Of a stretch of 64,000 nt of DNA, positions 31,497 to 54,154 are shown piece after piece. Numbering within the stretch: the first letter of the stretch is position 1; each line of letters begins with the position of its first letter. Location of the stretch: positions 1,264 to 65,263 of the forward strand of contig JBHLKC010000001.1 in the NCBI GenBank assembly GCA_048887065.1, given 5' to 3'. The DNA is from Candidatus Hodarchaeota archaeon (GTDB lineage Archaea > Asgardarchaeota > Heimdallarchaeia > Hodarchaeales > Hodarchaeaceae). The notes under the pieces were generated by a model that was given only the letters and a program-made list of their open reading frames with translations, did not search any database and was not told the DNA's origin. Both the position numbers and the translations under genes were made by a program.

Positions 31497-32681
31497 TTAT
31501 TTCTTACTTAATGATTTGATTGTGTTTAAAGTTATTTCAATTTCTTCTTCAGAATTATAGCAATGTGGTGATAACCGTAAACCTCCTTCCCGGTAAGCAA
31601 TCACAATCGGTATTGGTAGATTCCTCAATTTTGTTACAATTTCACTATCTGAATGACATGAAAAGTTAACTATTCCACTTCGACACTTGTTGTCTTCGAT
31701 TGGAGTGTTCAAATGAAAAGAACTTTCATTCTGCACAAATTCAATAATTGAATCAGTTAATTTCGTAATTTGTTTAAAGATGTTATCAATTCCTATATTA
31801 TCTAAGAATTCTACAGCTTTAGAAATAAGTTGAGCTGTATAATCTAAGGATGCTTGAAATCTTTTGGCTCCAGGGGCTGGATAGTAATTATGATGAGATA
31901 GATTTAGAGGATCAACATCTGAAATAGATCCAATAAAGCTAGGATTGAGATCTTCAGCTAATTCTCTTTTAATGTAAATGAATCCCGTCCCTAAAGGCCC
32001 TAAAAGCCATTTGTATCCCCCTGTAGCTAAATAATCAATAGCTTGGGTTTGAACATTAAGTGGTATTGCTCCAAGGGACTGGATCGCGTCAACTATTAGT
32101 TGAACATCGTTTTCCTGGCATATTTTTGATAATTCTTCCAGATCTATACGAAATCCATTACTAAATTGGACATGGGATATCGCAACTAAACGAGTTGGTT
32201 TTTTGATATTTTCGGTGAAATTTTCCATTAAAAGTCTTCCCTGGACATTATGAATAATCTCAAGGTCTAAATGCCATTTTTTTGCTAATACTTGGTACGT
32301 ATATGAATTAGAAGTATATTCTAAGTCATTTAGGATAATTCTATCTCCCTTCTTCCAATTAATACCCTCTGCGATAGCGGCAAGACCGTAAGAGGTGTTG
32401 TACGTAAAAGCAATTTCCTCTTCGGGGTATCGTGCATTTATGAATTTGCCAATTATTTTACGATCCTGATCAAGTTGATCTAACATCTCACTCAGAGAAA
32501 GAGAGTATAATTCACCATACATTTTGTGTTGGATTAATAACTTCTTACATTCTTCGATAACAGGAGTAGGACTGGGGCCAGTAGCTGCATGGTTCAAATA
32601 AATAGCTTGATTCGTTACAGGAAATTCTTCTCTTAATTTTCGAAGATTCATAATGATCCAAATCCATAATATTGAGTTCAT
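31497..32681 (-). CDS. class-V aminotransferase fold PLP enzyme (cysteine desulfurase/SufS-like)
   Basis: 394 aa. LNHAATGPSP N-terminus and GGYKWLLGPLGTGFIY PLP-lysine region (K in GGYKW). Confidence 0.7.
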   Translation of the reverse strand: MNSILWIWIIMNLRKLREEFPVTNQAIYLNHAATGPSPTPVIEECKKLLIQHKMYGELYSLSLSEMLDQLDQDRKIIGKFINARYPEEEIAFTYNTSYGLAAIAEGINWKKGDRIILNDLEYTSNSYTYQVLAKKWHLDLEIIHNVQGRLLMENFTENIKKPTRLVAISHVQFSNGFRIDLEELSKICQENDVQLIVDAIQSLGAIPLNVQTQAIDYLATGGYKWLLGPLGTGFIYIKRELAEDLNPSFIGSISDVDPLNLSHHNYYPAPGAKRFQASLDYTAQLISKAVEFLDNIGIDNIFKQITKLTDSIIEFVQNESSFHLNTPIEDNKCRSGIVNFSCHSDSEIVTKLRNLPIPIVIAYREGGLRLSPHCYNSEEEIEITLNTIKSLSKK

Positions 32682-37075: not shown

Positions 37076-37924
37076 ATGCTTTTTCAAGAACCAATAGTAA
37101 CTTTCGCTGATGTTATTATCGCTCTGATATTAACTAGTTTTGCTGGATTTGCTACGACAATTGGTGCTGCAACTGCTTTTATAACAAAAAAACCGTCTAT
37201 CCGTGTTCTTGCAATAGGATTAGGGTTTTCTGGTGGTGTAATGCTAGCAGTTTCGTTCGTTGAACTCCTTCCAAGTGCTCTTGATGAGTTTGCTAGTACT
37301 GGGTTGTCAGAAGGAGAATCATTTTTCTGGGGTAATTTTTGGTTCTTTGTTGGAATTTTCTTCATTTTTGCCATTGATGTTCTGATTCCCCACATTTACA
37401 AGGAAGAAGATAGTGGACACCAGCATTCTCATGAATTATCATATGATAGTGCTGATAAACAAATTTCCAAGGCCAATCTGCGAAAATTGGGATTGTTGAC
37501 AGCCTTAGGTATAGCTGTGCATAATTTTCCTGAAGGATTAGTTACATTCACAAGTAGTTTAAAATCTGTGGAGTTAGGTGTTGTATTGGCTATTGCTGTT
37601 GGTTTACACAACATACCAGAAGGACTTTCTGTTAGCATCCCTATTGTAACAGCTACAGGTGATAAATGGTATGCATTTCGTCTTGGACTTCTTTCTGGAA
37701 TTGCAGAACCTGTAGGTGCTTTACTAGCAGCTATAATTTTGTACCCATTTTTATCATCTAGCATTATTGGAGCTTCATTAGCCTTTGTCGCTGGTATAAT
37801 GGTTTTTATTTCATTTGATGAATTATTACCAGCTGCCAAATCAGCAGATGATTCCCATCTAGTCACTATAGGGGTTATCGGTGGAATGATTGTTATGGTT
37901 TTTACTCTATGGATGTTTACTTAA
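37076..37924 (+). CDS. ZIP-family divalent metal (Zn/Fe) transporter
   Basis: Two HNxPEG signature helices (VHNFPEGLV, LHNIPEGLSV), His-rich loop HQHSHE. 282 aa. Confidence 0.85.
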   Translation: MLFQEPIVTFADVIIALILTSFAGFATTIGAATAFITKKPSIRVLAIGLGFSGGVMLAVSFVELLPSALDEFASTGLSEGESFFWGNFWFFVGIFFIFAIDVLIPHIYKEEDSGHQHSHELSYDSADKQISKANLRKLGLLTALGIAVHNFPEGLVTFTSSLKSVELGVVLAIAVGLHNIPEGLSVSIPIVTATGDKWYAFRLGLLSGIAEPVGALLAAIILYPFLSSSIIGASLAFVAGIMVFISFDELLPAAKSADDSHLVTIGVIGGMIVMVFTLWMFT

Positions 37925-39935: not shown

Positions 39936-40885
39936 TTCGTAATTCTGAATGCATCTTTTTTCGCTTGAATTATCTGGATTGATAGTACACTAACCAAAAG
40001 GAGAATTAATCCGATCCATTCCTTTAACTCTGGAAATTCCCCCAAGAAGAAAATTGATAGAATTACAATTTGAGGCATCATTGTACTATTAATAAGGGTT
40101 ATATCCATCGCTCTTAATTTTCTCATGGCATTATTCCATAATGTAAATGCTAAAGCTGTATTTACAACCCCTAGCCAGATAATATAGACTATAGAAAGCA
40201 ACGATAAAGAAAGAACGATTTTAATTCCATCATTTGCTAATCCTAAAGCTAATAACACCAATGAACCAATTGTCATGCTTATACCTGTGATTATTACTGG
40301 AGAAATTTCGTGTGTTCGATTAATTGCGCGACCTAAGATTGATGAAAAAGCATTCGTTAGAACTCCAATACTGATTACAATTAATCCAATTATTGAGGTT
40401 GTCGTAAAATCTAAAGGAAAGAAATAGAATATTAAGCTTAGAAGCACAATTAAAAAGAAAAATAGCTCATTATAGGATGGATATTCCTTTAAAATACCGA
40501 TGGATAATATAATTACAAGAAATGTGGTAAGATTGAGGACAAAAGAAACAGTTATTGCGGGAAGGAGGTTTAGAGCTAAAAATTGTATTCCTTGAGTTAA
40601 TGTGATAAATAATAAGCCATAGATCGAGACTTGTAACCATGTAAATCTTGATTGTGATAGAAGTGAATTTCTGTATTCTTTTTTAGAAATAATGTATGTA
40701 CTGAGAATAATCGCTCCTAATATATATCTTAATCCCGCGAAGATTAATGGAGGGACTTCTTCAAGGCCGAATTTTATGATTACCCACGAAGAAGACCAAA
40801 GAACTGTTACAAAAACTGCTTGAGTAAATGCCATTAAATACTCTTTGGAGAACCCTCTTGAGGGAATTTGAGTATTTTTCATCAC
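39932..40885 (-). CDS. EamA/DMT-superfamily transporter
   Basis: 317 aa with 10 TM helices arranged as a two-fold EamA-like repeat. Confidence 0.65.
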   Translation of the reverse strand: MMKNTQIPSRGFSKEYLMAFTQAVFVTVLWSSSWVIIKFGLEEVPPLIFAGLRYILGAIILSTYIISKKEYRNSLLSQSRFTWLQVSIYGLLFITLTQGIQFLALNLLPAITVSFVLNLTTFLVIILSIGILKEYPSYNELFFFLIVLLSLIFYFFPLDFTTTSIIGLIVISIGVLTNAFSSILGRAINRTHEISPVIITGISMTIGSLVLLALGLANDGIKIVLSLSLLSIVYIIWLGVVNTALAFTLWNNAMRKLRAMDITLINSTMMPQIVILSIFFLGEFPELKEWIGLILLLVSVLSIQIIQAKKDAFRITN

Positions 40886-40988
40886 AGTCTCCTCGAAAAA
40901 ATTTCTGAATTTAGCAAATTTTTAACCATGTAACCAATCGTTTAATAATGTGAAAGCTTTTTGCCGTCCTATGATGGTTGTATATTAA

Positions 40989-41639
40989 ATGATTAGAACA
41001 AACCTCCAAATAAGTTCCAAAGATTATTACTCTTGTGAACTTACAAAAAAAATCCCAGTAAGAGTAACTATTGTTACTATTCAGCTTCCAGAGGGTTATG
41101 GGTATGTGGAACCTCTTGAAGGAGGAGAACATACTATTCACACCTATGTGAACGCTCTTACAGCCTCAAAAAGTGTATTAGAATTTGAAATTACATATAA
41201 GTCTCAAGAAGTCTACTGGACACGAATTGTGCACAAACTTGACTTCCCCTCGATATATGAAACCGTGCTAGAAAGTGGAAATATGTCTCTCTTACCAATT
41301 ACGATAATGAAAGGTGTTCAATTTCATACTGTGCTCTCTCCCTCACGTGAATCTCTTAGAAACCTTCTAACAACCTTAAAGACAAGGTTTACAACTGTTA
41401 AAATACTTTCTTTGCACTCAGAACCGTTGAAATCAAAAACGACACTGCTTACACAAAAACAATTTGAAGCGTTTTCATTAGCTTTTAATCAAGGATATTA
41501 TAAAATACCCAGACATGTAGGAATTGAAGATCTTGCAAAAAAACTTGGTGTAAAACGAGTAGCAGTTCAAGAAAGGCTCAGAAGAGCCGAATTACGCATT
41601 TTTACAGATTTTGTTAGGGGTATTGAAATTATAAAATGA
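40989..41639 (+). CDS. HTH_10 (bacterio-opsin-activator-type) DNA-binding protein
   Basis: C-terminal LTQKQFEAFSLAFNQGYYKIPRHVGIEDLAKKLGVKRVAVQERLRRAE is typical of Bat-like HTH_10 domains. Confidence 0.6.
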   Translation: MIRTNLQISSKDYYSCELTKKIPVRVTIVTIQLPEGYGYVEPLEGGEHTIHTYVNALTASKSVLEFEITYKSQEVYWTRIVHKLDFPSIYETVLESGNMSLLPITIMKGVQFHTVLSPSRESLRNLLTTLKTRFTTVKILSLHSEPLKSKTTLLTQKQFEAFSLAFNQGYYKIPRHVGIEDLAKKLGVKRVAVQERLRRAELRIFTDFVRGIEIIK

Positions 41640-41678
41640 TCTTTTAATTTGTATTTTCCCTTTTCCCTTTTACAAATC

Positions 41679-42362
41679 TTATGCCATTTCTACCTTTTTT
41701 ATCCGAAAACGGCAATAACTATCGCCATTTCCAATGCATTTTTCCTTAAAAACCGACTGCCCTATTAATTCATGCATCATTGTCTCATCAACCTTGCAAA
41801 TCATAGGATTCACTTTTGCTACTCCGTGCATTAGACAGTTATAGTTTGTTAATGCGTATGATGTCTCATCTTCATCTAGCTTAGGAAAAGTACCATGTTC
41901 TTCGAAAATTCCAACCAGCTTATTCAATTTAAATTCTAAAGAATCGACTTTGTCTGATAATTGCCTTTTCATTTGATCACTTATATTTAAGGCTAATTTT
42001 TTACCAATATTTGAGAAAAGCATCTGTAGTTTATCTTCTCCATACATAACCTTTATTTCATCAAGTACGGTTATACAAAATTCCATGTAAGTTTTAGGAA
42101 AAAGCTCTATCCCCTTTTCGGAAATTGAATAAACCATAGCAGGTCGTCCAGTCTTCCCTTTCTTCTCTTTCTTAAAAACAAAGCCTTCTTTTTCTAAGGT
42201 TACAAGGTAGTTCCATACAACATTAGTACTAAGATCTAATGAACTAGCAATGGCTTTCACAGTAAAATATGTGTTCTCATCGGATGTTGAACCTTGGTGC
42301 ATCAAAAAGCGTAGGATCCTTTCACGGGCTGGAAAAGATAAGTTTCTAAAATTATTTACCAA
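41679..42362 (-). CDS. winged-helix regulator with C-terminal V4R-like Cys domain (MsvR-like redox-sensing regulator)
   Basis: N-terminal wHTH (RERILRFLMHQG...). C-terminal NYNCLMHGV..NPMICKVDE...EKCIGNGDSYCRFRI resembles the V4R consensus C...G...CxF. Paralog of 47484-48173. Confidence 0.5.
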   Translation of the reverse strand: MVNNFRNLSFPARERILRFLMHQGSTSDENTYFTVKAIASSLDLSTNVVWNYLVTLEKEGFVFKKEKKGKTGRPAMVYSISEKGIELFPKTYMEFCITVLDEIKVMYGEDKLQMLFSNIGKKLALNISDQMKRQLSDKVDSLEFKLNKLVGIFEEHGTFPKLDEDETSYALTNYNCLMHGVAKVNPMICKVDETMMHELIGQSVFKEKCIGNGDSYCRFRIKKVEMA

Positions 42363-42664
42363 AATATTTTCTCCTAAACAATCGAAAGAAGGTTAATGAA
42401 TTAAATTAATAAAATTATTTGTAAACTTAATTTTCTCGATAGAAAATCTATGAATGGACATTGATTCATCTGATGAATCCTAAATTTTTTTTCAACCTAA
42501 TCAATTAAATGTGAGAAAAGCGAAATAAATGGAAGAAATTAAAGCAAGCAGTACAAAATATTGTTCATAGTCAAATTATACTAGAAGCAGCATTTCAAAA
42601 ACTTTTAATTAAAAGTTGGTTTATGAAATAAGGAGTAACTAGATAATATAAAGGCAATAGAGGT

Positions 42665-43558
42665 TTGAAAATGATTAGGACTCTTAATCAACCAATTGAG
42701 AGCATGTTAACTGAGTTCTGGGGGACGTCTGATGAAACAATTATTCATATATTAGTTGTATCAATCCTTATTATATTCTTTTGGTTCTTGTGGGGATTTA
42801 TTTTACGTCGTTTAAAAGATAAAATCTCACCTGAACTGTTTAACGCATTACGGACGCTTGGAAGAGCTACTATACTACTACTAGGACTATTCTGGATAGT
42901 AGGTGAGGAGCTATTCATTGGGGCAGCAGCTCTGCTAGGGACAGCTATTGGTTTTGCATCATCAACAACATTAGGGAATTTCATTAGTGGGCTCTACCTC
43001 CTTGTTACAAATCCATTTAATGTAGGAGACTATATTATGATCCCTAGTTTAAAGATTGAAGGGATTGTGGAAGAAGTATCGATCAATTATACAAAGATCC
43101 TAACACCAAATGGTATTCATGTGAGTATATCAAATCAAAAGTTATTAGGTGCAGCTATCCACAATACTAAAATTTGTGTGCCTCAGGAAGTCATAGATAA
43201 GGGAAAAATAACTTGGAGAGACCATGAGGGAGATAAATTCGATAGTTATGAAGATATAGTAGACATCTTGAAAGGAATTCGAGCAAAATATTCCTTGGAA
43301 ATAAAAGAGTATTACCTCTACCCGTTAGTATTTAGTCTCAGTTCTGACAAATATTCCCATGCATTGACGAAACAGGTTTTCAATGAAGCTATTAAGAAAT
43401 TCAGCGACCAAACCGAGGAAGAAATCTCTTGGCTTCTGATTGATCGTTCTAACTATCAAATCAATTTGATCGTTTCAAATCCCTACGTACTTTTTGACCT
43501 AAAAAGCAATGTCCTGGGATTTTTGGAAGAGAAAATCGAAGAGATACATAAAAAATGA
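42665..43558 (+). CDS. MscS-family mechanosensitive channel
   Basis: 3 TM helices, then the MscS pore/beta-domain signature GNFISGLYLLVTNPFNVGDYI. Confidence 0.8.
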   Translation: MKMIRTLNQPIESMLTEFWGTSDETIIHILVVSILIIFFWFLWGFILRRLKDKISPELFNALRTLGRATILLLGLFWIVGEELFIGAAALLGTAIGFASSTTLGNFISGLYLLVTNPFNVGDYIMIPSLKIEGIVEEVSINYTKILTPNGIHVSISNQKLLGAAIHNTKICVPQEVIDKGKITWRDHEGDKFDSYEDIVDILKGIRAKYSLEIKEYYLYPLVFSLSSDKYSHALTKQVFNEAIKKFSDQTEEEISWLLIDRSNYQINLIVSNPYVLFDLKSNVLGFLEEKIEEIHKK

Positions 43559-43624
43559 AGCTCTAAATGGTTTTCAATAACCAAGTCCCGTAAAACTAAT
43601 TCTTAAAGGAAAAGAGGAATCCAA

Positions 43625-44395
43625 TTGATTGTACCAGAAATTGTCGTGATATTCTATGGAGTAGTAGCAGGTGTTGGTACACTTTCAGGTATCTACATAA
43701 TGAACTCAAAGCAAGAATGGGCAATAAAACATTCTCACTATGTTAATTCATTTGCTGCTGGATTATTATTAGCATTAGTTTTTTTTCATCTTATTCCAGA
43801 AGCAGTAGAATTATTAGAAGTAATAGAAAGCTCAGAGCTAGCTTTTATTGCGGTTTTCATCGGATTCTTCTTCTTCTATCTATTGGAGAACTTTATTGTA
43901 CTACATTCAGGGAGTGAAATCCATTACCACTTAGAAGAATCCCCTGAACCCCATGTACATACCTCTGAAACAAGAATGGGGTTAATGGCGTTCTCTGGGT
44001 TAGCATTCCATTCTTTGCTAGATGGCGTCATAATTGGAGTAGGATTTGAAATTAGCTCTGAAATTGGTTTCCTTGCTGCTATGGCTGTAATTCTGCACGA
44101 AATCCCAGAAGGAGTAACAAGCTTTGCCCTCATTAATCGTACTATTCCCGAAAGAGCAAAGTTAATGGCTATTATTGTAGCTCTTGCCACTCCTTTTGGT
44201 GCGATGTTTTCTTTGCTGTTTGTTGAAGGCTTAACTGAATCGGTAATTGGAATTCTTTTAGCTTTAGCTGCAGGTTCATTTATTTATGTAGCAGCTTCAG
44301 ATCTAATACCTGAAACTCATTTAAGTAGTAATTTTCAAAATTTATTTTTCTTTTTACTCGGAGCAATCGTGATTTATGCAATTTCATTAATCTAG
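43625..44395 (+). CDS. ZIP-family divalent metal transporter
   Basis: HSLLDGVIIGVGF and LHEIPEGVTSFAL signature helices, His-rich loop HYHLEESPEPHVH. 256 aa. Confidence 0.8.
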   Translation: MIVPEIVVIFYGVVAGVGTLSGIYIMNSKQEWAIKHSHYVNSFAAGLLLALVFFHLIPEAVELLEVIESSELAFIAVFIGFFFFYLLENFIVLHSGSEIHYHLEESPEPHVHTSETRMGLMAFSGLAFHSLLDGVIIGVGFEISSEIGFLAAMAVILHEIPEGVTSFALINRTIPERAKLMAIIVALATPFGAMFSLLFVEGLTESVIGILLALAAGSFIYVAASDLIPETHLSSNFQNLFFFLLGAIVIYAISLI

Positions 44396-44465
44396 AATAA
44401 CCAATAGTTTTCCAATCTATGTTTGAGATTTGATGGGGGAAAATAAGAAATTTAAAGCTTTTTCT

Positions 44466-45161
44466 CTATAATTTAAGACTCAGTATATACTCAGTAGGAT
44501 TTTCAAACTGTTTTTGAATTTTAAAGCCAGGAATAGAGAGTAAATAAAATAGACAAGATCCAAGGTAATAAAATGAAACGAGGGTTACTAATGACGCTAT
44601 ATAGAGAAACAAAAAAGAAAATTCAACCGAAGGATAAGTTGAATGCCCCATCCGAATTAGAATTATGCAGATCCCATAACCATCGTTTACAGATCCCAAC
44701 ATGGCTGGTAATATGGGAAATAAGTTTATTAAATTAATTAAAAGGCCAAAAATTAGAAATTTTTTACCTGCAACAGAGGCTGGACTTTTTTTGTTACGAA
44801 GTACTATTATTCCCGCAATAGTGATTGTAAATACCATAAGAGAACCTGCTAGCTTCATTATTATTGATCCCCAGCAAACAGGTAATTCTTCAATGGTGAT
44901 CATGTTCGAACAGCCTCCTTCATATAAATGACAGATTTTAAACTGAGAATCAACTGTTGGTAGAATAATCGATGATGCAAGTAGGTGTCCTAATTCATGA
45001 AGACAATTGAACGGCAAATAAACGATATTATAAAGGCCTTGAACAATAGGGGATTGTTGAAGTAGATATAGAAAAAAGATTGAAAATAAAATTGAAAAGT
45101 AAAATTTAGCGTTTTGATTAATAACGGAAGGTGTGTCCTCGTTCATAGGTTTTTTTACCAT
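44466..45161 (-). CDS. membrane protein with intramembrane HExxH motif (putative membrane metalloprotease-like)
   Basis: 231 aa with about 5 TM helices. Motif CLHELGHLLAS. Family not resolved. Confidence 0.3.
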   Translation of the reverse strand: MVKKPMNEDTPSVINQNAKFYFSILFSIFFLYLLQQSPIVQGLYNIVYLPFNCLHELGHLLASSIILPTVDSQFKICHLYEGGCSNMITIEELPVCWGSIIMKLAGSLMVFTITIAGIIVLRNKKSPASVAGKKFLIFGLLINLINLFPILPAMLGSVNDGYGICIILIRMGHSTYPSVEFSFLFLYIASLVTLVSFYYLGSCLFYLLSIPGFKIQKQFENPTEYILSLKL

Positions 45162-45349
45162 GTAATATAAGGACGTATGGTTATTAAAACCTTTTTAGAA
45201 TTTTTTATTGATTTTAAAAAGTTTTAATTCATTTTACAATTTAAAATGTAAAAAAATTTTAAGCTTTTAGTAGAAAAAATGGAAGGAGATAGCAATTTCA
45301 ATTCTTACTGTCTAATTTTATTGAGAGAGTAAGTGAATATTGCTAGTGG

Positions 45350-46063
45350 TCACTGAATTGGAATCTTTTCTTTACCAGTTACCATTCCTCTAAGTCGTTG
45401 ACGATTTTCAGGGATTATAGCAAAATAAAAATGCACCATCGTAGAGACAAGGAAATATACAAACATAAGGAAGTGAAGGAAACGAATGTTAAGATTCAAT
45501 GCTTGCACCGGTGCAACAAGTAATGCCAATACAGCAAGTATCCCTGTAGATCCAGGTGCTAATTGCTCTGCAAGAGCAATTCCTGTTACACCCATTAGAA
45601 ATATTACAACTAGGTTCATTAAAGCTAGTAGTTTTTGAGCAGGATGATATTTCATAATATATTTCTTTTCTTCGAGGATATAGAAGTCATAATGGGGATA
45701 CTTTGAATCAGGTAAAATTCTAAACGCACATAATGCAATGATAATCAAGTCTAGAATCTCTCTTGGTGTAGGAATAATCTCAAGGAGTTTTCTGTCTTTT
45801 ATTAAGATCGCAATATAAAAAATTAAATCCCAACCACCTACAAAAATTCCAAGAATATAATGGAGAGTACGAGTGAACCCATATGTAGTTCCAAAGAAAT
45901 AGACTTTAATAGCGATTTCAAAACCTGTTAATATAAATAGAACCATAGATCCAACGTGAACCCAATGATGAAGTCGGTGGCTCTTTGTATATCTTTCTAC
46001 AGAAAGAAACTCGAAAGTTTTTGATTCGTCTGCTTTTGAGAGTACTTTTTTTGTTTTAAGCAT
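45350..46063 (-). CDS. membrane di-heme b-type cytochrome (Ni/Fe-hydrogenase/formate-dehydrogenase cytochrome b subunit-like)
   Basis: 237 aa with 4-5 TM helices. Conserved R..HRLHHWVHV on TM1 and further His on later helices, as in the HyaC/FdnI family. Confidence 0.5.
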   Translation of the reverse strand: MLKTKKVLSKADESKTFEFLSVERYTKSHRLHHWVHVGSMVLFILTGFEIAIKVYFFGTTYGFTRTLHYILGIFVGGWDLIFYIAILIKDRKLLEIIPTPREILDLIIIALCAFRILPDSKYPHYDFYILEEKKYIMKYHPAQKLLALMNLVVIFLMGVTGIALAEQLAPGSTGILAVLALLVAPVQALNLNIRFLHFLMFVYFLVSTMVHFYFAIIPENRQRLRGMVTGKEKIPIQ

Positions 46064-46099
46064 AATTGATCATCTACATAAGTAAAATTTGTCTAAAAA

Positions 46100-47011
46100 T
46101 TATTCTTCAGAAGAAAATGTTTCATTCCAACGCTCTCTAAATGTTGGGCTCTTCCAACGATTACTAGTGCTTAATTTTGTTGGTATATCGCTAGAAATTA
46201 GTCGGTAATCGTGTTTTATTGGATTTATGATTACTCTACGAATGAAGTGCAGAACAATAAACCCAAAACCACTTAACATTGTTAAGCTAAGCACTTGGAG
46301 CTTAAGTTGATCATAATTGATTACTGTTGGGACAGGAATATTTCCAGGGGCAATCCCAGCTTGAGGAGTGGAAAATGATGTAAGTATATAGTAAAAAGTA
46401 TGTGAACCAAAATGATCACTTTTTGAAGCAAATTGAATCATTGTTATGCTTCCATTCTGATACACAATATCATAACCATTAGAATCAACACTTGTTGTAT
46501 CTAATAATCTCACAACTTCAATCTCTACAAGATCGCCTGTGAAAATACCTTCAGCTAAAAGATCATTATTAGTGTCTTCACTAGGCATCCGCGTTCCAAT
46601 AAAGAATACATCCTTCGCTTCTACAGTTTTAGCATTCTCATCAATATAAATAGCCCAACCGTCATGCTGGTTCATCATACATGCAGAGGTATCTGCGTCA
46701 AACTCGATTGATATCCATTCATTGCTTGCTGAGCTAACAAGTAAAGCATACAGATGAGTTTCGTTATTAGCAAATTTAACGTAACCCTTAGGACCGTATT
46801 CTGATATATTCTGATAAGATTCAATAGATGACCAAAATGGATCAATTTGACCATCATTCAGGTTCAATGTGGTGTTTGTTTTACTGGATACGAATCCTGG
46901 AGTTTCATCTGCAACCTTGCTCGGATAACCTAATGTTGATCCTACAAAGAAGCCTGCTCCAATAAAAAAGGCTATCATCAACAAAGATAGGATTATTTTT
47001 CTCATTCCCAT
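46100..47011 (-). CDS. extracytoplasmic DOMON/EB_dh-like (putative heme-binding) domain protein with N- and C-terminal TM anchors
   Basis: 303 aa with signal-anchor and C-terminal TM. Central domain (DPFWSSIESY...THLYALLVSSASNEWISIEFDAD) resembles ethylbenzene-dehydrogenase-gamma/DOMON-type domains. Has N-glycosylation sequons. Lies 36 nt upstream of the cyt b gene on the same strand. Confidence 0.35.
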   Translation of the reverse strand: MGMRKIILSLLMIAFFIGAGFFVGSTLGYPSKVADETPGFVSSKTNTTLNLNDGQIDPFWSSIESYQNISEYGPKGYVKFANNETHLYALLVSSASNEWISIEFDADTSACMMNQHDGWAIYIDENAKTVEAKDVFFIGTRMPSEDTNNDLLAEGIFTGDLVEIEVVRLLDTTSVDSNGYDIVYQNGSITMIQFASKSDHFGSHTFYYILTSFSTPQAGIAPGNIPVPTVINYDQLKLQVLSLTMLSGFGFIVLHFIRRVIINPIKHDYRLISSDIPTKLSTSNRWKSPTFRERWNETFSSEE

Positions 47012-47483
47012 TTTAATTTCACTTCTACTATGTCCAACACAATATTCAGACTTAATACAGTAATTAATAGATTGTATTCTCCCTTGGGGATACCGTCTGA
47101 ATCGGAAAAATAATTTTGACCAATAGAGAACAATTACTCACAGTTTTTACGTGTTAGTTGCAGATATTCTAGCTGTTCCTTGGATTGTAATGTGGAGAAT
47201 AATAATTATTTTTCCGATTTTAAATTCTATAAAATAATATTTTAATTTTTCCATTTAAAAATTTGCAAACTGTATTTATTTTGTACTTAACTAGTGTAAG
47301 AAGTAAAAGAAAAACAGAAAAGAGGTTAAAATTTAATTATAGATTTTTTACAAAGACAGTAGGCATTGATTATATCGAAAATTTTGCAGCTCTTCCTCTA
47401 TAATAAGTGAAAAGAATTTGAAGCCTTTATCAGTGGTAATTTTGGGAAGGATATCTTACATTGAAGTCCTTTTTTAGGGGTTA

Positions 47484-48173
47484 TTAACTAGCTTTCACTT
47501 TTTGAATTCTATAGAGACAACATTCATCGCCGTCTCTAAGACATTTCTCTTTTGTACACTTTTGACCTGCTAATTCCGCTATCATTGTCTCGTCAACTTT
47601 ACAAACCAATGGATCATGTCTTACAACACCATAAACAAGACAGTTATAATTCAAGAGCGAGAATGATGTTTCGTCTTCTATTAATTCTGGAAACTTCCCA
47701 TAATCTTGGAAAACTTCAGCCACTTTTTCTAGCCTTTGTTTAACTGGTAGAGAATCGAAGGATTCTGTTCTATCCATATTAGATTCGATAATATCTTTTA
47801 TTTCTGAGGCGATTCTTTTCCCTACCATTTCGAGCATGGTAACTGTCTCTGCAATACCATGACGACTCTTAATTAAATCGACTAGATAGATAGATAAATC
47901 TCTATAAACCTTAGGAAAAAATTCAAAAGCATTGTCTGTAAGTGTGTAAGTCATAGCAGGCCGACCTGTTGAACCCTTCAGTTCTGTTCGTACCACAAGT
48001 CCATCTTTTTCAAGAACAACCATATATTGTCGGGCTGCATTTGTACTAAGGCCAAGTTCAGTTGCAATCTGTTTTATGGTACAACAATCACCATCTGGTG
48101 ATCGATTAAGCAACAAGTACCGTAAGATCTTTTCACGTGTCGTAATAAATGGTTCTTGTTCTGCTTGGATCAT
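47484..48173 (-). CDS. winged-helix regulator with C-terminal V4R-like Cys domain (MsvR-like), paralog of 41679-42362
   Basis: Shared blocks RPAMTYTLTD, EDETSFSLLNYNCLVYGVVRHDPLVCKVDETMIAELAGQ, EKCLRDGDECCLYRI. Confidence 0.5.
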   Translation of the reverse strand: MIQAEQEPFITTREKILRYLLLNRSPDGDCCTIKQIATELGLSTNAARQYMVVLEKDGLVVRTELKGSTGRPAMTYTLTDNAFEFFPKVYRDLSIYLVDLIKSRHGIAETVTMLEMVGKRIASEIKDIIESNMDRTESFDSLPVKQRLEKVAEVFQDYGKFPELIEDETSFSLLNYNCLVYGVVRHDPLVCKVDETMIAELAGQKCTKEKCLRDGDECCLYRIQKVKAS

Positions 48174-49192
48174 TTTTTTTCTCCTATCTTTATGAAAAGG
48201 GTTTTGTTTGTATAATCATAATGGGAACAGTGATTGATTTCAAAAAAAATGAGAGGCGCTATTGAAATATTGGTTAAACAATGTTTCCGCTCATAATTAT
48301 ATAATTTGATTTTAATGAGAGGAAATATCCAAGGCATGCGAATGAACTCGCGACTTTATTATTATGATTATCCGTGTAAATAAAGAATAAATACATATAT
48401 AATAATTTTCCTAAAAAAAAGCATAAAATCAAAAAAGTTGACAATGAATACATAATTTAACTACTTTCTGAATTTAACTAACTTTTATCTACTGAAAATA
48501 ATAAATATTGAGAAATAAGAAACCTAAACGTTTTTGCTCTTGTTTCTTTAAAACATTTGAAGAGGATTTTACTCGTTGAAATTCAATCCTTTTTGAAGGC
48601 CATATTCGATTTAAATAGTAGAAAATGATTTTCACTAGCGATAAAAGCGAATTATGTCTCAATCATGTCCGATCTTATTGCTAGCAGATTAACCACAAGA
48701 AAGTTATTATCTCTTGATGGAAAAATAATAATTAGAAAAGTAAATTTCAATTACATCCGAATTCATAGAGGCTTAATACTATAACAATTAACTATTGTAA
48801 ATTAGTTTAACTAGATTCGAAAAACGGATTATATATTATCTCTTTTTGTAAAATAAAGTTCGCATCCGTTTTTTAGGCTATTATTATCAAAATGGTTTTT
48901 ATTGGATTTTTTCCAGCTCTATAAGTCTCTTCTGTATTAATGCAGATTTTCTGAAGTTTTTATAATAGATACATTAAAAAAATAAAAAACTATAGTTATA
49001 TTTCATACATTTAATAATACCATAATGTTTTTTTATCTGAAATTATACCTATACTTGAGTATAGTTTCTAATACTATATTTATCGCAAAGTTTGCGAAAT
49101 TCGAAATAACATACGATATGTCGGTTAAAGTACCGATAGTTAACTTCTTACCAAGAAGTAGCGAAGAAAATCTCATATACGGCGGTATATTG

Positions 49193-50512
49193 ATGAATCA
49201 AGAAGAAAAATTAGTCAGCCAGAGTAAGTGGAGTGGCAAGCGAGTTGTGTTACTCTACTGGTTCTCAATCGCTTTCTTGGGAACAGCTGCTGCTGCTGGT
49301 CTAGGTGCTGGTGTTTTAAATCCTAAATATTCCTTCGATGCAGTACAAATGGACCATAGCAGTATAACTGATCCCTGGGGACCACAAGATTGTACTGGTG
49401 CTTATTGTCACAATGACTCGGTTGACACTTGGAATGAAACTGGACATGCTCATGCTGCTGTTCCTTTCACTAATACTACTGGTGATTTTGTGGAAATAGC
49501 AGGTTCGAGGAATGTTACACGTGCCCAATTTGACTCAAGTTGTGGGCATTGTATGGCAACAGGATGGGACAATTCCACTGGAACTGTCACCTACTGGGAT
49601 TTTGGAGTAACTTGTGCAGCCTGTCACGAGCCAGGTGTAATAAATTATACTGCAGCAAGTTGTGGGAACTGCCACACTGGAAGTCACCACCCTCAATATC
49701 CAGATTACCAAAAGAGTGCACATTCTCAATCAATGGATGATTTGCTGGCAAGCGATCACGCGGGTGACCACTGTCTTCATTGCATGTCTGGACAAGGGCT
49801 ATATGCAGAAGAAGAGTTATCGCTTGATGATACCTTCTTAACTTCGATTAACTGTGCTACCTGTCACGATCCCCATGATGCGACAAATTCAACTCAACTA
49901 CGAGAAGCAGATGTGACCGATCTCTGTGGTGAGTGTCATAGTGGAGGTCGCCATGGATCTCTAGATATGCTAACCGATACAGAAACTACAAGTGCTCATG
50001 GATACATTGATTGTACCTCGTGCCATGGTTACCAGCTTGACAGTTACGGTGAAGCAGGTGTGAATCATACTTGGGCTGTGACAACGGATGGATGCTCAAC
50101 ATGTCATTCAAACCCCACCGAACGATGGACTCTGATGGAGGATATCCAAGGCGATATCACTGCACTAATGGACGAATACGAGACTCTATATGAGAATGTC
50201 ACTAAAAAAGTCGATGAAGCCAACGAAACAGCAGGCGTAGATGAAGCCTTGATCAATGATTCTTTCGATTTAATCGCTGAAGCTGAAGCACTTTTCATTG
50301 CAGTTGATGGTGACGGAAGCGAAGGTTTCCACAATCCTGACTTAGCTGAAGCAAAACTCAAATTGGCTCTAACAAAGCTGGATGAGGCTTATGCTAAAGC
50401 TGAAGAGGCTGTAGCTGGTGGTGGTGACGTTCCTGGATTTGAAGTATTCACAGTCTTAGCAGCGATTAGTGTTCTAGCTGTAGGAGTTCTTCTCTACAAG
50501 AAAAGACGCTAA
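49193..50512 (+). CDS. surface-anchored multiheme c-type cytochrome with PGF-CTERM archaeal sorting signal
   Basis: Six canonical CxxCH motifs (CAACH, CGNCH, CATCH, CGECH, CTSCH, CSTCH), one CX4CH (CTGAYCH) and two CxxCM. N-terminal signal/TM. More than 10 N-x-S/T sequons. Ala/Glu-rich linker, then VPGFEVFTVLAAISVLAVGVLLYKKRR (PGF motif + TM + basic tail). The track ORF starts at 49025, but the ATG at 49193 precedes the signal peptide. Confidence 0.8.
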   Translation: MNQEEKLVSQSKWSGKRVVLLYWFSIAFLGTAAAAGLGAGVLNPKYSFDAVQMDHSSITDPWGPQDCTGAYCHNDSVDTWNETGHAHAAVPFTNTTGDFVEIAGSRNVTRAQFDSSCGHCMATGWDNSTGTVTYWDFGVTCAACHEPGVINYTAASCGNCHTGSHHPQYPDYQKSAHSQSMDDLLASDHAGDHCLHCMSGQGLYAEEELSLDDTFLTSINCATCHDPHDATNSTQLREADVTDLCGECHSGGRHGSLDMLTDTETTSAHGYIDCTSCHGYQLDSYGEAGVNHTWAVTTDGCSTCHSNPTERWTLMEDIQGDITALMDEYETLYENVTKKVDEANETAGVDEALINDSFDLIAEAEALFIAVDGDGSEGFHNPDLAEAKLKLALTKLDEAYAKAEEAVAGGGDVPGFEVFTVLAAISVLAVGVLLYKKRR

Positions 50513-50552
50513 AAACTACCAGAGGACGAAAAAGGCATCACCTTAAAATATA

Positions 50553-50597
50553 AAGCAATGTAATGTAATTATATTGCTTTTTAATTCCTTTTTTTTA
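50553..50597 (+). terminator. hairpin plus oligo-T putative transcription terminator downstream of the cytochrome gene
   Basis: Inverted repeat aagcaat / attgctt flanks a 13-nt loop, followed by T-runs (ttttt ... tttttttt). Archaeal termination typically uses oligo-T. Confidence 0.35.
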
Positions 50598-50972
50598 TTA
50601 GTTGGGAGGCAGAGGTATGTAGAATATTACTTTGTATTATGAGGTTTCTTTCATGCAATTTCTCGATAATTCAGAATGTTAAGATCTTTAATTTAGTGTT
50701 AGAACAGAAATAAAAAAATCGATTCTATGAGATTAATTGACATTTTAATAATTGTATTAAACCTGATTTGCTTACAGGTTTTGAATTGATTATGGTGTCA
50801 TTTTTATGGAAGGGACTTTTATTAAAACTTCTTTCTGTATTTCTCCCTACAAACAATAAGAATTTACCTATCTAATCCTGTAACTAGAACGTTTGGGTTT
50901 TCTGAAAAAAAATTACCGTGTGTTTATTACCAAAAATTATACCTAGAATATTGTTAAGGGTTATTACTTAAT

Positions 50973-51404
50973 CTATTTTTGGCATACACACGGTAGAGAA
51001 ACACAATCAGATAGGATTGGCTGAATCCCTGAGAGATTAATTTCGTTCTCAGTAATTGTTCCATTTAATGCTTTGCTCGTTAGTTCCAAGAATCTGTCAG
51101 TTTCGTCTATCCCTAATTTTGTAAGACTGGGGAAGAGCTTAGTTTCAATCTCTCGTAGATCGCAAGCTGTTTCACAGATAGAGTAACACCCGCTTTCAAT
51201 TTTGTTTCGTGTCATTCTGAGTTGTTGTAGAAGATCATTGGGTATTTTATCACCGTTCTTATATATTCTCCCAATTGTAGAGGCCATTACTGCCCATTTC
51301 CAGCCAAATTTAGAAAGCATCTCTTCTAATTCAGCTTTAGATTTGCTTTTCTCCATTCTTTGTCCAAATTCAGATCTAGTTTGCACTCTCATTTTTATCT
51401 CCAT
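50973..51404 (-). CDS. hypothetical Cys-containing protein
   Basis: 143-aa ORF flanked by long non-coding spacers. No recognised motif. Confidence 0.3.
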   Translation of the reverse strand: MEIKMRVQTRSEFGQRMEKSKSKAELEEMLSKFGWKWAVMASTIGRIYKNGDKIPNDLLQQLRMTRNKIESGCYSICETACDLREIETKLFPSLTKLGIDETDRFLELTSKALNGTITENEINLSGIQPILSDCVSLPCVCQK

Positions 51405-51726
51405 TTTCTAAGAGGATCAAAATGTATTGAATATACGAACTTTTTAGTTTATAAATTTTTTTTATTTTTTAAATATTTATTAAATAGAGGAATATTATTA
51501 ATTTTTTAACTAAAAAAGTTAAAAATCAATTACACAAGTTTCACACCGCCTTGTCCACGTGCAATAATTAGCCTTGGTAATTGTATTTTATATTTCAGAG
51601 CTTTAACTCTTCAATTTTCTACAGGAAGAAACGCTAAAAACTAGTTGAGTATCTTAGTGAAGCAAAATGTCCAAAATGCTTTACATATTCCTTTTTTTCT
51701 TTTTTACTTGAATATTGATATGAATA

Positions 51727-52416
51727 TTATTCTGTTATCAATTCATCGATAAACAAGAGTATCAATACTAAGACAATGATTGCATGAAGGAAAAGAAGAA
51801 ATGCATTGATTACAACTGAAGTTGGATCATAATAGAATGTTAAATTTCTTGTAGCCTCTGCAGCAATAATAATGGATGGGAGAATTAATGGGAAAAACAG
51901 AATCGGAATGGCTAAAGTTTTAGATTTAGCATAAATTGTCAAGAAAGACACAATACAACCAGCAACAACTAGATCGATTGTCCCAATTGCCAAAACAAAA
52001 CAAAAGAGTAACAAGTCTCCTTGAACATTAATTTCTAAGAAGATTATAGCCATAGTAAATGCGAATACCTCGACAACTGCCAAAATAACTCCTAAATACA
52101 AGAGTTTTGCCAAAAAAATTGCTTGAGGTTTAATCGACAACGAAAGGAGTGAATATATTGAATTTTTCCTCATTTCCCGTGAAAAGACCGAATTGAGACC
52201 TAGCATGACAGTAAAGGCAATTATAAACCACATTGATGCTGTAGAAATTGTATACTTTGCTTCAAGAGATATATTCTCAATGAGATTAAAGAGAGTAGAA
52301 AATATAAGTACAGAGGCTAAAGAAAAAAGGCCCATTGAAAAAAGAGTCTCTTTTGTCCTAAATTCTAGAATTAAATCCTTTTTTGCTATATTAAAGGTGT
52401 CAAGAATAATTGACAT
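51727..52416 (-). CDS. ABC-2-type permease, putative heme exporter protein B (CcmB-like)
   Basis: 229 aa with 6 TM helices, immediately downstream of the ABC ATPase in an operon with ccmC. The CcmB assignment is contextual. Confidence 0.5.
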   Translation of the reverse strand: MSIILDTFNIAKKDLILEFRTKETLFSMGLFSLASVLIFSTLFNLIENISLEAKYTISTASMWFIIAFTVMLGLNSVFSREMRKNSIYSLLSLSIKPQAIFLAKLLYLGVILAVVEVFAFTMAIIFLEINVQGDLLLFCFVLAIGTIDLVVAGCIVSFLTIYAKSKTLAIPILFFPLILPSIIIAAEATRNLTFYYDPTSVVINAFLLFLHAIIVLVLILLFIDELITE

Positions 52417-52439
52417 TATTGATCCACAATTAAATAATA

Positions 52440-53201
52440 TTAATTCTTGTTTTTCAAGAAAAAATCATATTCAGAAGGAATGAGTACTTTCGTGATCCCA
52501 CCATTTTCGAGATAAAACACTCTACTGCACAAGCGAGCTATTGTACGAAAATTATGTGAACAAATGATAACTGTTCGATCTGCCTGTCGTTTCGTAATGA
52601 GCTGATTCAAGAATTTTTTATTCTCTACATCTAAACCACTAAAAGGTTCATCAAGGAGAAGCAATTTAGGCAAAGTAGGTAATAAAACCCTTAAAATTTC
52701 CAGTTTTTTAGCCATGCCAGTAGAGAGTTCATGTGCGGGTCTGTCAATATATAATTTGAGATTATACTGTTTTACTGCTTCATTAATAATCTCATTAGTA
52801 TTTTTTGTACGTTTATTCATTTTGAGATAATATTCAAGATTTTCACGTCCAGTAAGATCCTCATAAAAGAATGAATGGCTTAATAACACTCCAATATCCT
52901 TTTTCAAGAGATGATATTTTTCCTTAGCTTCTGTACCAAAAATTTTGATGCTACCTGAAGAAGGGGTAACCAGAAGGGATATAATTTTTAGAAGTGTGCT
53001 CTTTCCAGCTCCATTATGTCCAATAAATCCTATTGTTTCTCCTTCTTCTATTTTCAGATGAATTTTCTTTAAAGCAGTCGTAAAACCATAAATTTTGCTA
53101 ACATTTGTCAATTCAACAGCTGGCAGATTGTTCTGCATACCAACGCTCATCTCAAAGCACCATTTAACCTCAATGCTCCCTGTATATGGAAAAAAGGTCA
53201 T
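52440..53201 (-). CDS. ABC transporter ATP-binding protein, putative CcmA
   Basis: Walker A GHNGAGKST, signature LSTGMAKK, Walker B LLLDEPFSGLD. Confidence 0.8.
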   Translation of the reverse strand: MTFFPYTGSIEVKWCFEMSVGMQNNLPAVELTNVSKIYGFTTALKKIHLKIEEGETIGFIGHNGAGKSTLLKIISLLVTPSSGSIKIFGTEAKEKYHLLKKDIGVLLSHSFFYEDLTGRENLEYYLKMNKRTKNTNEIINEAVKQYNLKLYIDRPAHELSTGMAKKLEILRVLLPTLPKLLLLDEPFSGLDVENKKFLNQLITKRQADRTVIICSHNFRTIARLCSRVFYLENGGITKVLIPSEYDFFLKNKN

Positions 53202-53232
53202 ATGAAAATCTTAAAATCCTCAGACTCCAATA

Positions 53233-53391
53233 TTACTCCTTTAAACTGTCTAATTCACGTTCTAATTTCTTCAACTTATTAACAGTATAATAGAGATAGA
53301 GAAAAATCAGTATCCATGCAGCAATAGAAACAAAAAACATCAAATTTAATTCAGAACCAAGAATTTCATCAAATATGTCAGTTACAGCCAT
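53233..53391 (-). CDS. small single-TM protein, CcmD-like (not in ORF track; 52 aa)
   Basis: My own translation: MAVTDIFDEILGSELNLMFFVSIAAWILIFLYLYYTVNKLKKLERELDSLKE. One TM helix plus a charged tail. Lies between ccmC and the ABC ATPase, where ccmD sits in ccm operons. Confidence 0.4.
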   Translation of the reverse strand: MAVTDIFDEILGSELNLMFFVSIAAWILIFLYLYYTVNKLKKLERELDSLKE

Positions 53392-53425
53392 TATGTTAAC
53401 CTCCGATTAAATTGTATTTGAAGAT

Positions 53426-54154
53426 TCAATCTTCCTCCATTCTTTGTTTTCTTAATTTTTTTAAAGCAAAATCCATTTTATTGAGTTTATACGCTTGATA
53501 GATCAGAATTAAGGCCAATATTCCAATAAATAAAAAGTTTAACATTAAGAACATGCCTGCCCCAGTGCTATAACTTGTTTGTTGAGGATTAGGATGTAAG
53601 ACTCCAACTATAACATATGATAGGGGTACAGAGACGAATGCTACAATTCCAAATACTGCTGAAATCGTTGCCTTTCTTTCGTGATTTTCGACTTCTATCA
53701 TATCTCGAAAGATTAGAAGGCCAACATATATGAGCCACATAACTAAGGTTATTGTCTCACGATCATTCCAATCCCAAAAAGTACCCCATTCAACTTTTGC
53801 CCAAATCATTCCAACAATGATCGTTATTGCTCCAAGTACAACACCGACCTGAGCACTTGAAACGAGAATAAGATCTAATCTCAAATCTTTTTTCCATAAT
53901 AAGAAAAGAATTCCGCAAATAAGAGCAATTCCAAAGCAGAAGTATGTTGAAAAAGCGAATGGAACCATATAGAATATTGGTTTACCACTTACTATAAAAC
54001 CCTGAAAAGGTTTTAATGAGATATAGACCATATAATAATTAAAAGTGATAAAACCCAATCCAATAATGAAAAATATCTGAGTCTTGTATGGGATTTTTCG
54101 CCAAATTTTATCCATGATAAAATCCGTATAAGGCTTAAGAATTTCCGGACTCAA
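53426..54154 (-). CDS. ccmC: heme exporter protein C (CcmC) with WWD domain
   Basis: Tryptophan-rich WWD signature VEWGTFWDWNDRE, conserved His in flanking loops, 6 TM helices. 242 aa. Confidence 0.75.
   Translation of the reverse strand: MSPEILKPYTDFIMDKIWRKIPYKTQIFFIIGLGFITFNYYMVYISLKPFQGFIVSGKPIFYMVPFAFSTYFCFGIALICGILFLLWKKDLRLDLILVSSAQVGVVLGAITIIVGMIWAKVEWGTFWDWNDRETITLVMWLIYVGLLIFRDMIEVENHERKATISAVFGIVAFVSVPLSYVIVGVLHPNPQQTSYSTGAGMFLMLNFLFIGILALILIYQAYKLNKMDFALKKLRKQRMEED

Follow-up and report, generated by a model that had tools for sequence, protein, structure and literature searches.

The described proteins closest to regA and regB, two transcription regulators encoded on a 64,000-nucleotide stretch (the window; contig JBHLKC010000001.1) of a Candidatus Hodarchaeota metagenome-assembled genome (MAG), are those of the SufR-like (COG2345) family. 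This family was defined in a 2025 preprint that reports the cryo-electron microscopy structure of Mycobacterium tuberculosis SufR (Rv1460) on DNA (10.64898/2025.12.26.696629). According to that study, the winged helix-turn-helix (wHTH) domain of SufR carries a GRP AT-hook in its wing, which reads flanking A/T tracts, and an 'RRH' motif in helix 3, at which variation within the family was noted; a helical dimerisation domain and a sensory domain like those of MopR (5KBG) and TRAPPC3/Bet3 (1WC8) complete the protein, and the [4Fe-4S] cluster is held by C179, C192, C220 and E195. The same authors proposed that COG2345 regulators control diverse pathways beyond Fe-S assembly. One such case is ArnR, a COG2345 [4Fe-4S] protein that represses respiratory nar genes (PMC12343034); in Corynebacterium glutamicum it is a repressor of narKGHJI and hmp that responds to nitric oxide (NO). 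Two other groups enter the comparison: MsvR, which is described as methanogen-specific and has TTCGN7-9CGAA boxes in its own promoter (PMC3729527), and MetOD1 (PF18546), the output domain of methanogen response regulators, which Galperin and colleagues related to HNOB, V4R and ATC hydrolase and which shares a three-Cys cluster with V4R (PMC5847659).

The Hodarchaeales and allied lineages are placed among the archaea nearest to eukaryotes, and there is active debate over the ways in which they sense oxidants and put them to use. Two of their 'helix-turn-helix regulator' genes are now placed in the SufR-like family, of which both characterised members (SufR and ArnR) bind a [4Fe-4S] cluster. Across Asgard lineages, one clade of these regulators is fixed beside c-type cytochrome genes and a cassette with DOMON-like and cytochrome b genes. 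COG2345 is a recognised but barely characterised family of which regA and regB are new, uncharacterised members; they are not a new kind of system, and their value lies in making redox sensing among the near relatives of eukaryotes accessible to testing. The two genes are:

regA, 41679-42362, (-) strand: 227 aa, TTG start; SufR-like (COG2345-type), Asgard clade A; recognition-helix motif WNY
regB, 47484-48173, (-) strand: 229 aa; SufR-like paralogue, Asgard clade B; recognition-helix motif RQY; first gene of the cassette

Family and fold of the two regulators

The family assignment draws on Pfam, NCBIfam, profile searches, an AlphaFold2 (AF2) model of regA and Foldseek comparison of that model with the PDB. 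The best NCBIfam match of both proteins is the SufR model TIGR02702 (SufR_cyano), which they match end to end: residues 13-217 of regA align with model positions 3-204 of 208 (E 2e-20, 73.2 bits), and the match in regB spans residues 11-222 (E 9e-16, 58.1 bits). All 48 relatives sampled match the same model. Pfam recognises a winged helix at the N-terminus of regA and regB, in agreement with a preliminary description of the locus, as well as MetOD1 (PF18546), above its gathering threshold of 23.8 bits in both (regA 35.3, regB 24.8).

The AF2 model of regA (predicted local distance difference test 79.9) has the element order H-H-H-E-E, two long helices and an alpha/beta domain, which is the three-part architecture of SufR; the two-helix region after the wHTH corresponds to the SufR dimerisation domain. 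Its top PDB matches are the V4R sensory domains of PoxR (5fru), MopR (5kbg/5kbe) and DmpR (6iy8), together with Bet3 (1wc8), at a probability of 1.00 and E values of 8.5e-5 to 3.5e-3, and they include both structures that the SufR preprint names (MopR 5KBG and Bet3 1WC8). Together with MetOD1, these matches bear out the V4R-like C-terminal fold that had been proposed. Unlike in the MetOD1 response regulators and in PoxR, MopR and DmpR, the domain is fused to a wHTH and not to a REC or AAA+ module; the three-Cys cluster is shared. In MopR the cysteines bind structural Zn and the ligand is phenol. Searches of PDB sequences with the protein and with the family profile matched only the wHTH, in a PDB copy that holds no SufR structure.

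Several short motifs of SufR recur in the Asgard proteins. GRP (G72-R73-P74) is invariant in 26 of 26 aligned homologues and in all 48 regulators derived from loci, and it lies in the wing loop of the model, between strands E62-68 and E74-80. The FPxxY motif is conserved, its Tyr being the equivalent of M. tuberculosis Y96. The recognition helix, alpha-3, differs: in place of the 'RRH' of SufR it reads R-Q-Y in the regB clade, W-N-Y or W-N-H in the regA clade and R-Q-H in bacterial relatives, and the first Cys of the sensory domain is preceded by Asn rather than His.

An exhaustive profile search returned 3,889 cluster representatives; at E<1e-10 there were 1,656, mostly full-length proteins of 200-230 aa. 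A separate top group scored at least 198 bits, and its aligned members carry the same four cysteines as regA and regB; below it, a large full-length set of 200-230 aa scored about 107-140 bits among the 150 listed. A separate scan of species-representative genomes recovered Asgard loci and bacterial relatives, for example from Neobacillus. Over its full length regA shares 100% identity with an NCBI protein of a Candidatus Hodarchaeota MAG, and in a word-indexed search all of its close homologues with an organism name were labelled Asgard archaea. The GC fraction is 0.32-0.37 all along the window; being even, it gives no compositional mark of a foreign island.

Judged from these profile and fold comparisons, regA and regB belong to an Asgard-specific branch of the SufR-like/COG2345 family of probable iron-sulfur-cluster transcription factors. 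They are not SufR proper, since they score under the equivalog cut-off of TIGR02702 (178.8 bits) and do not lie beside suf genes, no sufBCD having been found among the annotated parts of the window. The sole Fe-S-related candidate there is an Aminotran_5 gene at 31497-32681, a possible cysteine desulfurase, about 9 kb away.

The preliminary description had regA and regB as paralogues sharing long identical blocks. The paralogy stands: BLASTP aligns 220 aa at 43% identity and 65% positives (E 2e-65). The blocks had been overstated, the longest shared peptides being CKVDETM (7 aa) and TGRPAM (6 aa) and the longest identical run of DNA 11 nt, at 59% nucleotide identity overall. Given this low identity and these short runs, the sequence comparison indicates that the two genes are true paralogues of ancient divergence, not recent copies.

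Conserved cysteines and candidate cofactor

An alignment of 26 Asgard homologues shows four invariant cysteines (C176, C189, C209 and C217 in regA numbering), and all 30 non-redundant Asgard regulators from fetched loci have them too. All 48 regulators taken from loci have C176, C189 and C217; in a wider sample of 48 sequences C176 and C189 are invariant, C217 is conserved in at least 90%, and C209 is common, not universal. The spacing of C176, C189 and C217, C-x12-C-x27-C, is that of C179, C192 and C220 in M. tuberculosis SufR. Of the Cys-rich C-terminal motif noted in the preliminary description, the cysteine part thus holds, and the His part does not, the His being replaced by Tyr in regB and not conserved. 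A match of the C-terminal domain to a different fold, with no Cys conservation across homologues, had been named there as grounds for giving up its reading; the cysteines turned out to be conserved.

The position of the fourth SufR ligand, Glu195 (Cys2+3), is occupied by a metal-capable residue (Glu, His, Asn, Asp or Cys) in more than 96% of the family (10.64898/2025.12.26.696629). In the Asgard proteins it is Asp instead of Glu (D192 in 29 of 30 sequences, followed by E193). Since the substitution E195D destroys the cluster of M. tuberculosis SufR and inactivates the protein (same preprint), the fourth ligand must differ here. The Asgard proteins also have an additional invariant cysteine, C209, relative to SufR, so that their four cysteines, a V4R-like set (C189, C209, C217) plus the SufR-specific pair C176-x12-C189, could provide all-Cys ligation. 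The arrangement C189-x19-C209-x7-C217 is near the C-x25-C-x7-C triad of V4R, MsvR and MopR, with a spacing that is not identical. The cofactor is the main uncertainty of this analysis, and the [4Fe-4S] cluster in regA and regB, proposed by analogy with SufR and ArnR, is putative. The family assignment extends the proposed role of COG2345 regulators beyond Fe-S assembly to a new archaeal clade whose ligation could be all-Cys.

Conservation of the regB cassette

The gene regB opens a cassette on the (-) strand and is divergent from a multihaem cytochrome gene, beyond which lies a set of cytochrome c maturation genes:

p303, 46100-47011, (-) strand: membrane-anchored DOMON/EB_dh-like protein, probably haem b-binding
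Cytochrome b, 45350-46063, (-) strand: prokaryotic cytochrome b561 (Ni_hydr_CYTB), after p303
TM231, 44466-45161, (-) strand: polytopic HExxH membrane protein of 231 aa, last gene of the cassette
Multihaem c-type cytochrome, 49193-50512, (+) strand: divergent from regB; 6 CXXCH + 1 CX4CH
ccm set, 51727-54154, (-) strand: ccmC 53426-54154; ccmD-like 52-aa open reading frame (ORF) 53233-53391; ccmA 52440-53201; ccmB 51727-52416

In tblastn comparisons over 47 fetched loci (numbered with L), another 13 non-redundant loci showed the order regB, p303, cytochrome b, TM231. Their MAGs carry the labels Hodarchaeota, Heimdallarchaeota, Hermodarchaeota and Promethearchaeota, and one of the 13, L013, has other genes intervening after regB. 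An Odinarchaeota locus also contains p303 and cytochrome b, at a distance of 5.5 kb downstream of the regulator. Orthologues of TM231 were found in L004, L005/6, L012-L015, L017, L019-L021, L023 and L042-L044. Of 17 regB-type loci, 12 have a multihaem cytochrome or ccm genes upstream in divergent orientation; in the window, 1,019 bp separate the start codon of regB from that of the multihaem cytochrome.

The neighbours listed in the preliminary description, namely HTH_10, MscS and ZIP genes by regA and the multihaem cytochrome about 1 kb from regB, are confirmed by their coordinates. Its suggestion of redox- or metal-responsive control of the whole island is plausible, and its two halves differ in backing: regB has conserved synteny with haem genes, whereas for regA and the MscS/ZIP genes there is only a lineage-limited adjacency. 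We consider regB a likely redox or iron switch of a cassette conserved across Asgard archaea. As such it is a testable candidate switch for extracytoplasmic electron-transfer genes, with defined DNA fragments available for binding tests.

Others have already noted that Hodarchaeales possess DOMON proteins and genes for cytochrome c biogenesis. One preprint, on cultured Hodarchaeales, states that cytochrome c is absent from Cox-possessing Heimdallarchaeia (10.1101/2025.02.26.640444), and a second reports genes for cytochrome c biogenesis in some MAGs (10.1101/2024.07.04.601786). The Hodarchaeota contig studied here encodes a c-type cytochrome with seven haem motifs together with the ccmC/ccmD-like/ccmA/ccmB set. 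In a limited literature search we found no prior description of the Asgard four-Cys branch with its fixed DOMON-like/cytochrome b/HExxH cassette.

Upstream DNA and candidate operators

The recognition helices of regA and regB differ (WNY and RQY), so the two proteins should bind different DNA. The shared palindromic operator that the preliminary description had proposed to look for did not materialise: between 42363-42664 and 48174-49189 no k-mer of at least 11 nt is shared, common 10-mers number four where six are expected, and 9-mers are at chance level. The WNY/WNH and RQY helices of the two clades fit with this absence.

Comparison with a sister MAG (L043), whose intergenic DNA is 80-84% identical to that of the window, revealed three blocks that are fully conserved:

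Block upstream of regA, 42389-42437, (-) strand: 49 nt, 100% identical to L043 (intergenic average 82%); candidate promoter/operator
Block between regB and p303, 47200-47263, (-) strand: 64 nt, 100% identical to L043 (intergenic average 84%); candidate cassette promoter/operator
Block upstream of the multihaem cytochrome, 49053-49111, (+) strand: 59 nt, 100% identical to L043; candidate operator

Each block holds a dyad: the inverted repeat AAATTAA-N17-TTAATTT at 42403-42433 in the first, the inverted repeat ATTATTTT-N18-AAAATAAT at 47205-47238 in the second, and the perfect palindrome TCGCAAA-N1-TTTGCGA at 49083-49097 in the third. Another palindrome, CTATACT-N2-AGTATAG (49049-49064), overlaps the edge of the third block and is not intact in L043. 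From their conservation we regard the blocks as candidate operators. The intergenic region between regB and the cytochrome gene (48174-49192) is unusually long and 80% identical to L043, with perfectly kept blocks of 40-59 nt; it contains no ORF of more than 59 aa and no Rfam match, and a wider Rfam search over 40500-51800 likewise found none.

Inspection of the alignment with L043 also removed several candidates. Four perfect 7-nt inverted repeats with 18-nt spacers lie between regB and the multihaem cytochrome (four of the eight in the window); none is intact in L043, and they are therefore treated as chance. The 17-bp palindrome GATTCATC-N1-GATGAATC (42463-42479) and the 18-bp palindrome AACTTTTAATTAAAAGTT (42600-42617) are both disrupted in L043.

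Further promoter-like elements came from the regB orthologues of other Asgard genomes. Six such loci have a TATA box, TTTATAAAG, followed after 8-10 nt by the 30-nt AT-rich block CAATTATTTTATTAAATAATTTAAATAATT, which is 87-100% identical (mostly 93-100%) in five loci, against 78-88% for coding DNA; a related block with 22 of 30 identical positions lies about 100 nt upstream of the p303 genes in those loci. In another group of loci, ATTAATA-CT-TATTAAT follows a TATA-like box. The top matches in the window to a position weight matrix of the 30-nt block cluster upstream of regA; the matrix is essentially AT-rich, and these matches were judged unconvincing.

In L005, L012, L014, L019 and L021 the regB-p303 intergenic region (about 540 nt) has a 100%-conserved block that is not AT-rich, GCGTCTTTATCGGCGGTAATACA, and about 140 nt downstream of it a partial complement, AAAGACGC; RNAalifold pairs the two around an inner hairpin of variable sequence. 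Going by this predicted pairing, the cassette of that lineage may be preceded by a structured 5' leader. The leader block GCGTCTTTATCGGCGGTAATACA had no match in the window when three mismatches were allowed.

Proposed regulation and alternative explanations

The explanation that we favour, with some confidence but short of conviction, is that regA and regB are dimeric [4Fe-4S] SufR-like regulators that tune haem and electron-transfer genes. Each would form a homodimer with one [4Fe-4S] cluster per subunit, and the holo form would sit on AT-rich DNA at the TATA box, either overlapping it or immediately downstream, and would repress transcription. Damage, nitrosylation or non-assembly of the cluster, through O2, reactive oxygen species, NO, or shortage of iron or Fe-S, would then lead to release, as in SufR and ArnR. 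Going by gene order, regB would regulate its own gene and control p303, cytochrome b and TM231, and probably also the divergent multihaem cytochrome and the ccm genes; regA perhaps couples metal transport to redox, NO or iron status. ArnR offers the best functional analogy for regB and its cassette, as a SufR-like regulator of respiratory or redox genes and not of Fe-S assembly, although it is bacterial, has other target genes and is likened to regB by function, not by sequence.

Several observations weigh against this explanation. The scores of regA and regB are far under the TIGR02702 equivalog cut-off, at less than half its value. Asp stands at the fourth-ligand position, which would call for a different ligand, possibly C209 or E193. 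The direction of control (repression or activation) and the signal are taken from analogy with characterised relatives. Upstream, the matrix of the 30-nt block from six regB-orthologue promoters reaches at best 14 in the window, while its training sites score 27-41, and because the whole region is AT-rich, AT-rich 'sites' are weak evidence. The gene regA adjoins MscS and ZIP only in this MAG and its sister L043 (regA 87% identical). Lastly, the V4R cysteines of MopR, C155, C181 and C189, are in the same positions and bind structural Zn (PMC9556785).

The last point leads to an alternative that we think unlikely but worth keeping in view, in which the four cysteines would hold Zn and the pocket of the domain would bind a small molecule such as haem, a quinone or an aromatic compound. 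The best structural matches of regA, PoxR, MopR and DmpR, are Zn-containing, phenol-sensing V4R domains, the Zn ligands of MopR share the C-x7-C spacing with C209 and C217, and the neighbouring genes encode haem proteins and the haem-handling ccm functions. However, whole-length homology is much stronger to the Fe-S-binding SufR family, the C176-x12-C189 pair is specific to that family, and both characterised COG2345 members bind [4Fe-4S].

The preliminary description had called both regulators MsvR-type, a reading in which the V4R-like cysteines would act as a thiol/disulfide switch that holds no metal cluster, oxidation altering DNA binding. MsvR, which is dimeric, autoregulatory and redox-responsive, does have the same plan of an HTH and a V4R-like domain with conserved cysteines, and C189-x19-C209-x7-C217 is like the C-x25-C-x7-C of MaMsvR (C206, C232, C240) and MopR. 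The NCBIfam MsvR model (NF053755) matches the C-terminal half of regA weakly (E 0.058) and 18 of the 48 relatives. This match reaches only 13.1 bits, however, against a cut-off of 220; regB has no match to the model, and neither protein matches Pfam V4R (PF02830) at E<=1. Over the full length both proteins align with SufR instead; the SufR family, unlike MsvR, is marked by the C-x12-C pair and the GRP wing; the MsvR box TTCGN7-9CGAA has no match in the whole 64-kb window; and MsvR has been described as specific to methanogens (PMC3729527), whereas the host here is an Asgard archaeon. We therefore withdraw the MsvR label and hold the thiol-switch reading to be improbable.

It is very improbable that regA and regB are genuine SufR orthologues repressing a suf operon elsewhere in the genome, with incidental adjacency to cytochromes: TIGR02702 is their best named family match and one Joint Genome Institute homologue was automatically named 'DeoR family suf operon transcriptional repressor', but their scores are under half the equivalog cut-off, no sufBCD lies in the annotated parts of the window, putative archaeal SufR homologues are directly upstream of suf operons (10.64898/2025.12.26.696629), the neighbours that the regB-type clade retains from one Asgard lineage to another are DOMON-like, cytochrome b and ccm genes, and the presence of two to three paralogues per locus speaks for roles that have diversified.

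Membrane components of the cassette

No Pfam match was found for p303, nor any match in a profile search of PDB sequences; one homologue has a DOMON annotation. With hhalign the probability of a match to EB_dh was only 77%, and a fold search was needed to place p303. Its AF2 fold matched CBM9, the ethylbenzene dehydrogenase gamma subunit, NxrC, the cytochrome domains of cellobiose dehydrogenase and the DOMON domain of dopamine beta-hydroxylase. The protein consists of an N-terminal transmembrane (TM) helix, a beta-sandwich, a C-terminal TM helix and a conserved cytoplasmic tail, with C111, M112, H200 and H204 invariant. These fold matches and the invariant Met and His residues identify p303 as a membrane-anchored DOMON/EB_dh-like protein, which probably binds haem b. 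Within residues ~251-303, comprising the second TM helix and the tail, H255, R258, R259, V260, P264, I265, H267, P289, R294, T298 and F299 are invariant. The tail matches the haem domain in degree of conservation, a hint of a cytoplasmic partner or of a part in signalling.

The last gene of the cassette, TM231, has the invariant motifs HE(L/I/V)xH and NLFPxxP...(T/N/S)DG, the signature pair of site-2 (M50) intramembrane metalloproteases, and its Pfam matches to M50/M50B are sub-threshold only (E 0.013-0.16). By these motifs TM231 resembles a site-2 protease. One copy, in L044, lies near a clade A regulator.

We also entertain, as a long shot, the idea that the cassette is a transmembrane redox-signalling device and not only an electron-transfer module. 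Its parts would be the SufR-like regulator, p303 with its conserved tail, the di-haem cytochrome b and TM231. The extracytoplasmic haem domain of p303 would report external redox or oxidant status, the protease-like TM231 would process the membrane anchor or tail of p303, and the Fe-S regulators, as two or three paralogues with differing recognition helices, would integrate inside and outside signals and switch sets of haem and cytochrome genes.

Surroundings of regA and further paralogues

The genes beside regA in the window are the following:

HTH_10 regulator, 40989-41639, (+) strand: beside regA
MscS-like channel, 42665-43558, (+) strand: divergent from regA; possible regA target, in this lineage only
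ZIP metal transporter, 43625-44395, (+) strand: after MscS; possible regA target, in this lineage only

A neighbour-joining tree of the Asgard regulators has three clades, B (regB), B' and A (regA). Clade A regulators stand directly before EB_dh genes in L044-L047, L008/9 and L010/L011, the last pair labelled Thorarchaeota/Heimdallarchaeota, and clade A loci of other Hodarchaeales have CcmF-like, DOMON, Fer4_11 and NrfD genes nearby. The synteny of clades A and B thus points to a family-wide theme, a SufR-like regulator before a gene for an extracytoplasmic haem domain. Clade B' is a second regulator copy that is convergent after TM231 in four loci, and another Asgard genome has a further paralogue in a divergent pair:

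Clade B' paralogues after the cassette, L013 11914-12594, L015 6791-7489, L017 9576-10274 and L023 9671-10414, all (-) strand: convergent
Divergent paralogue pair, L008 5912-6604, (-) strand: further paralogue in another Asgard genome

Pairs of SufR-like regulators bracketing haem genes recur among Asgard genomes in varying arrangements. In the window, a second ZIP-family gene (37076-37924, (+) strand) lies within 7 kb of the ZIP gene at 43625-44395 (+), and genes for EamA transporters, BtpA and a PP-loop ATPase are found between and around the two.

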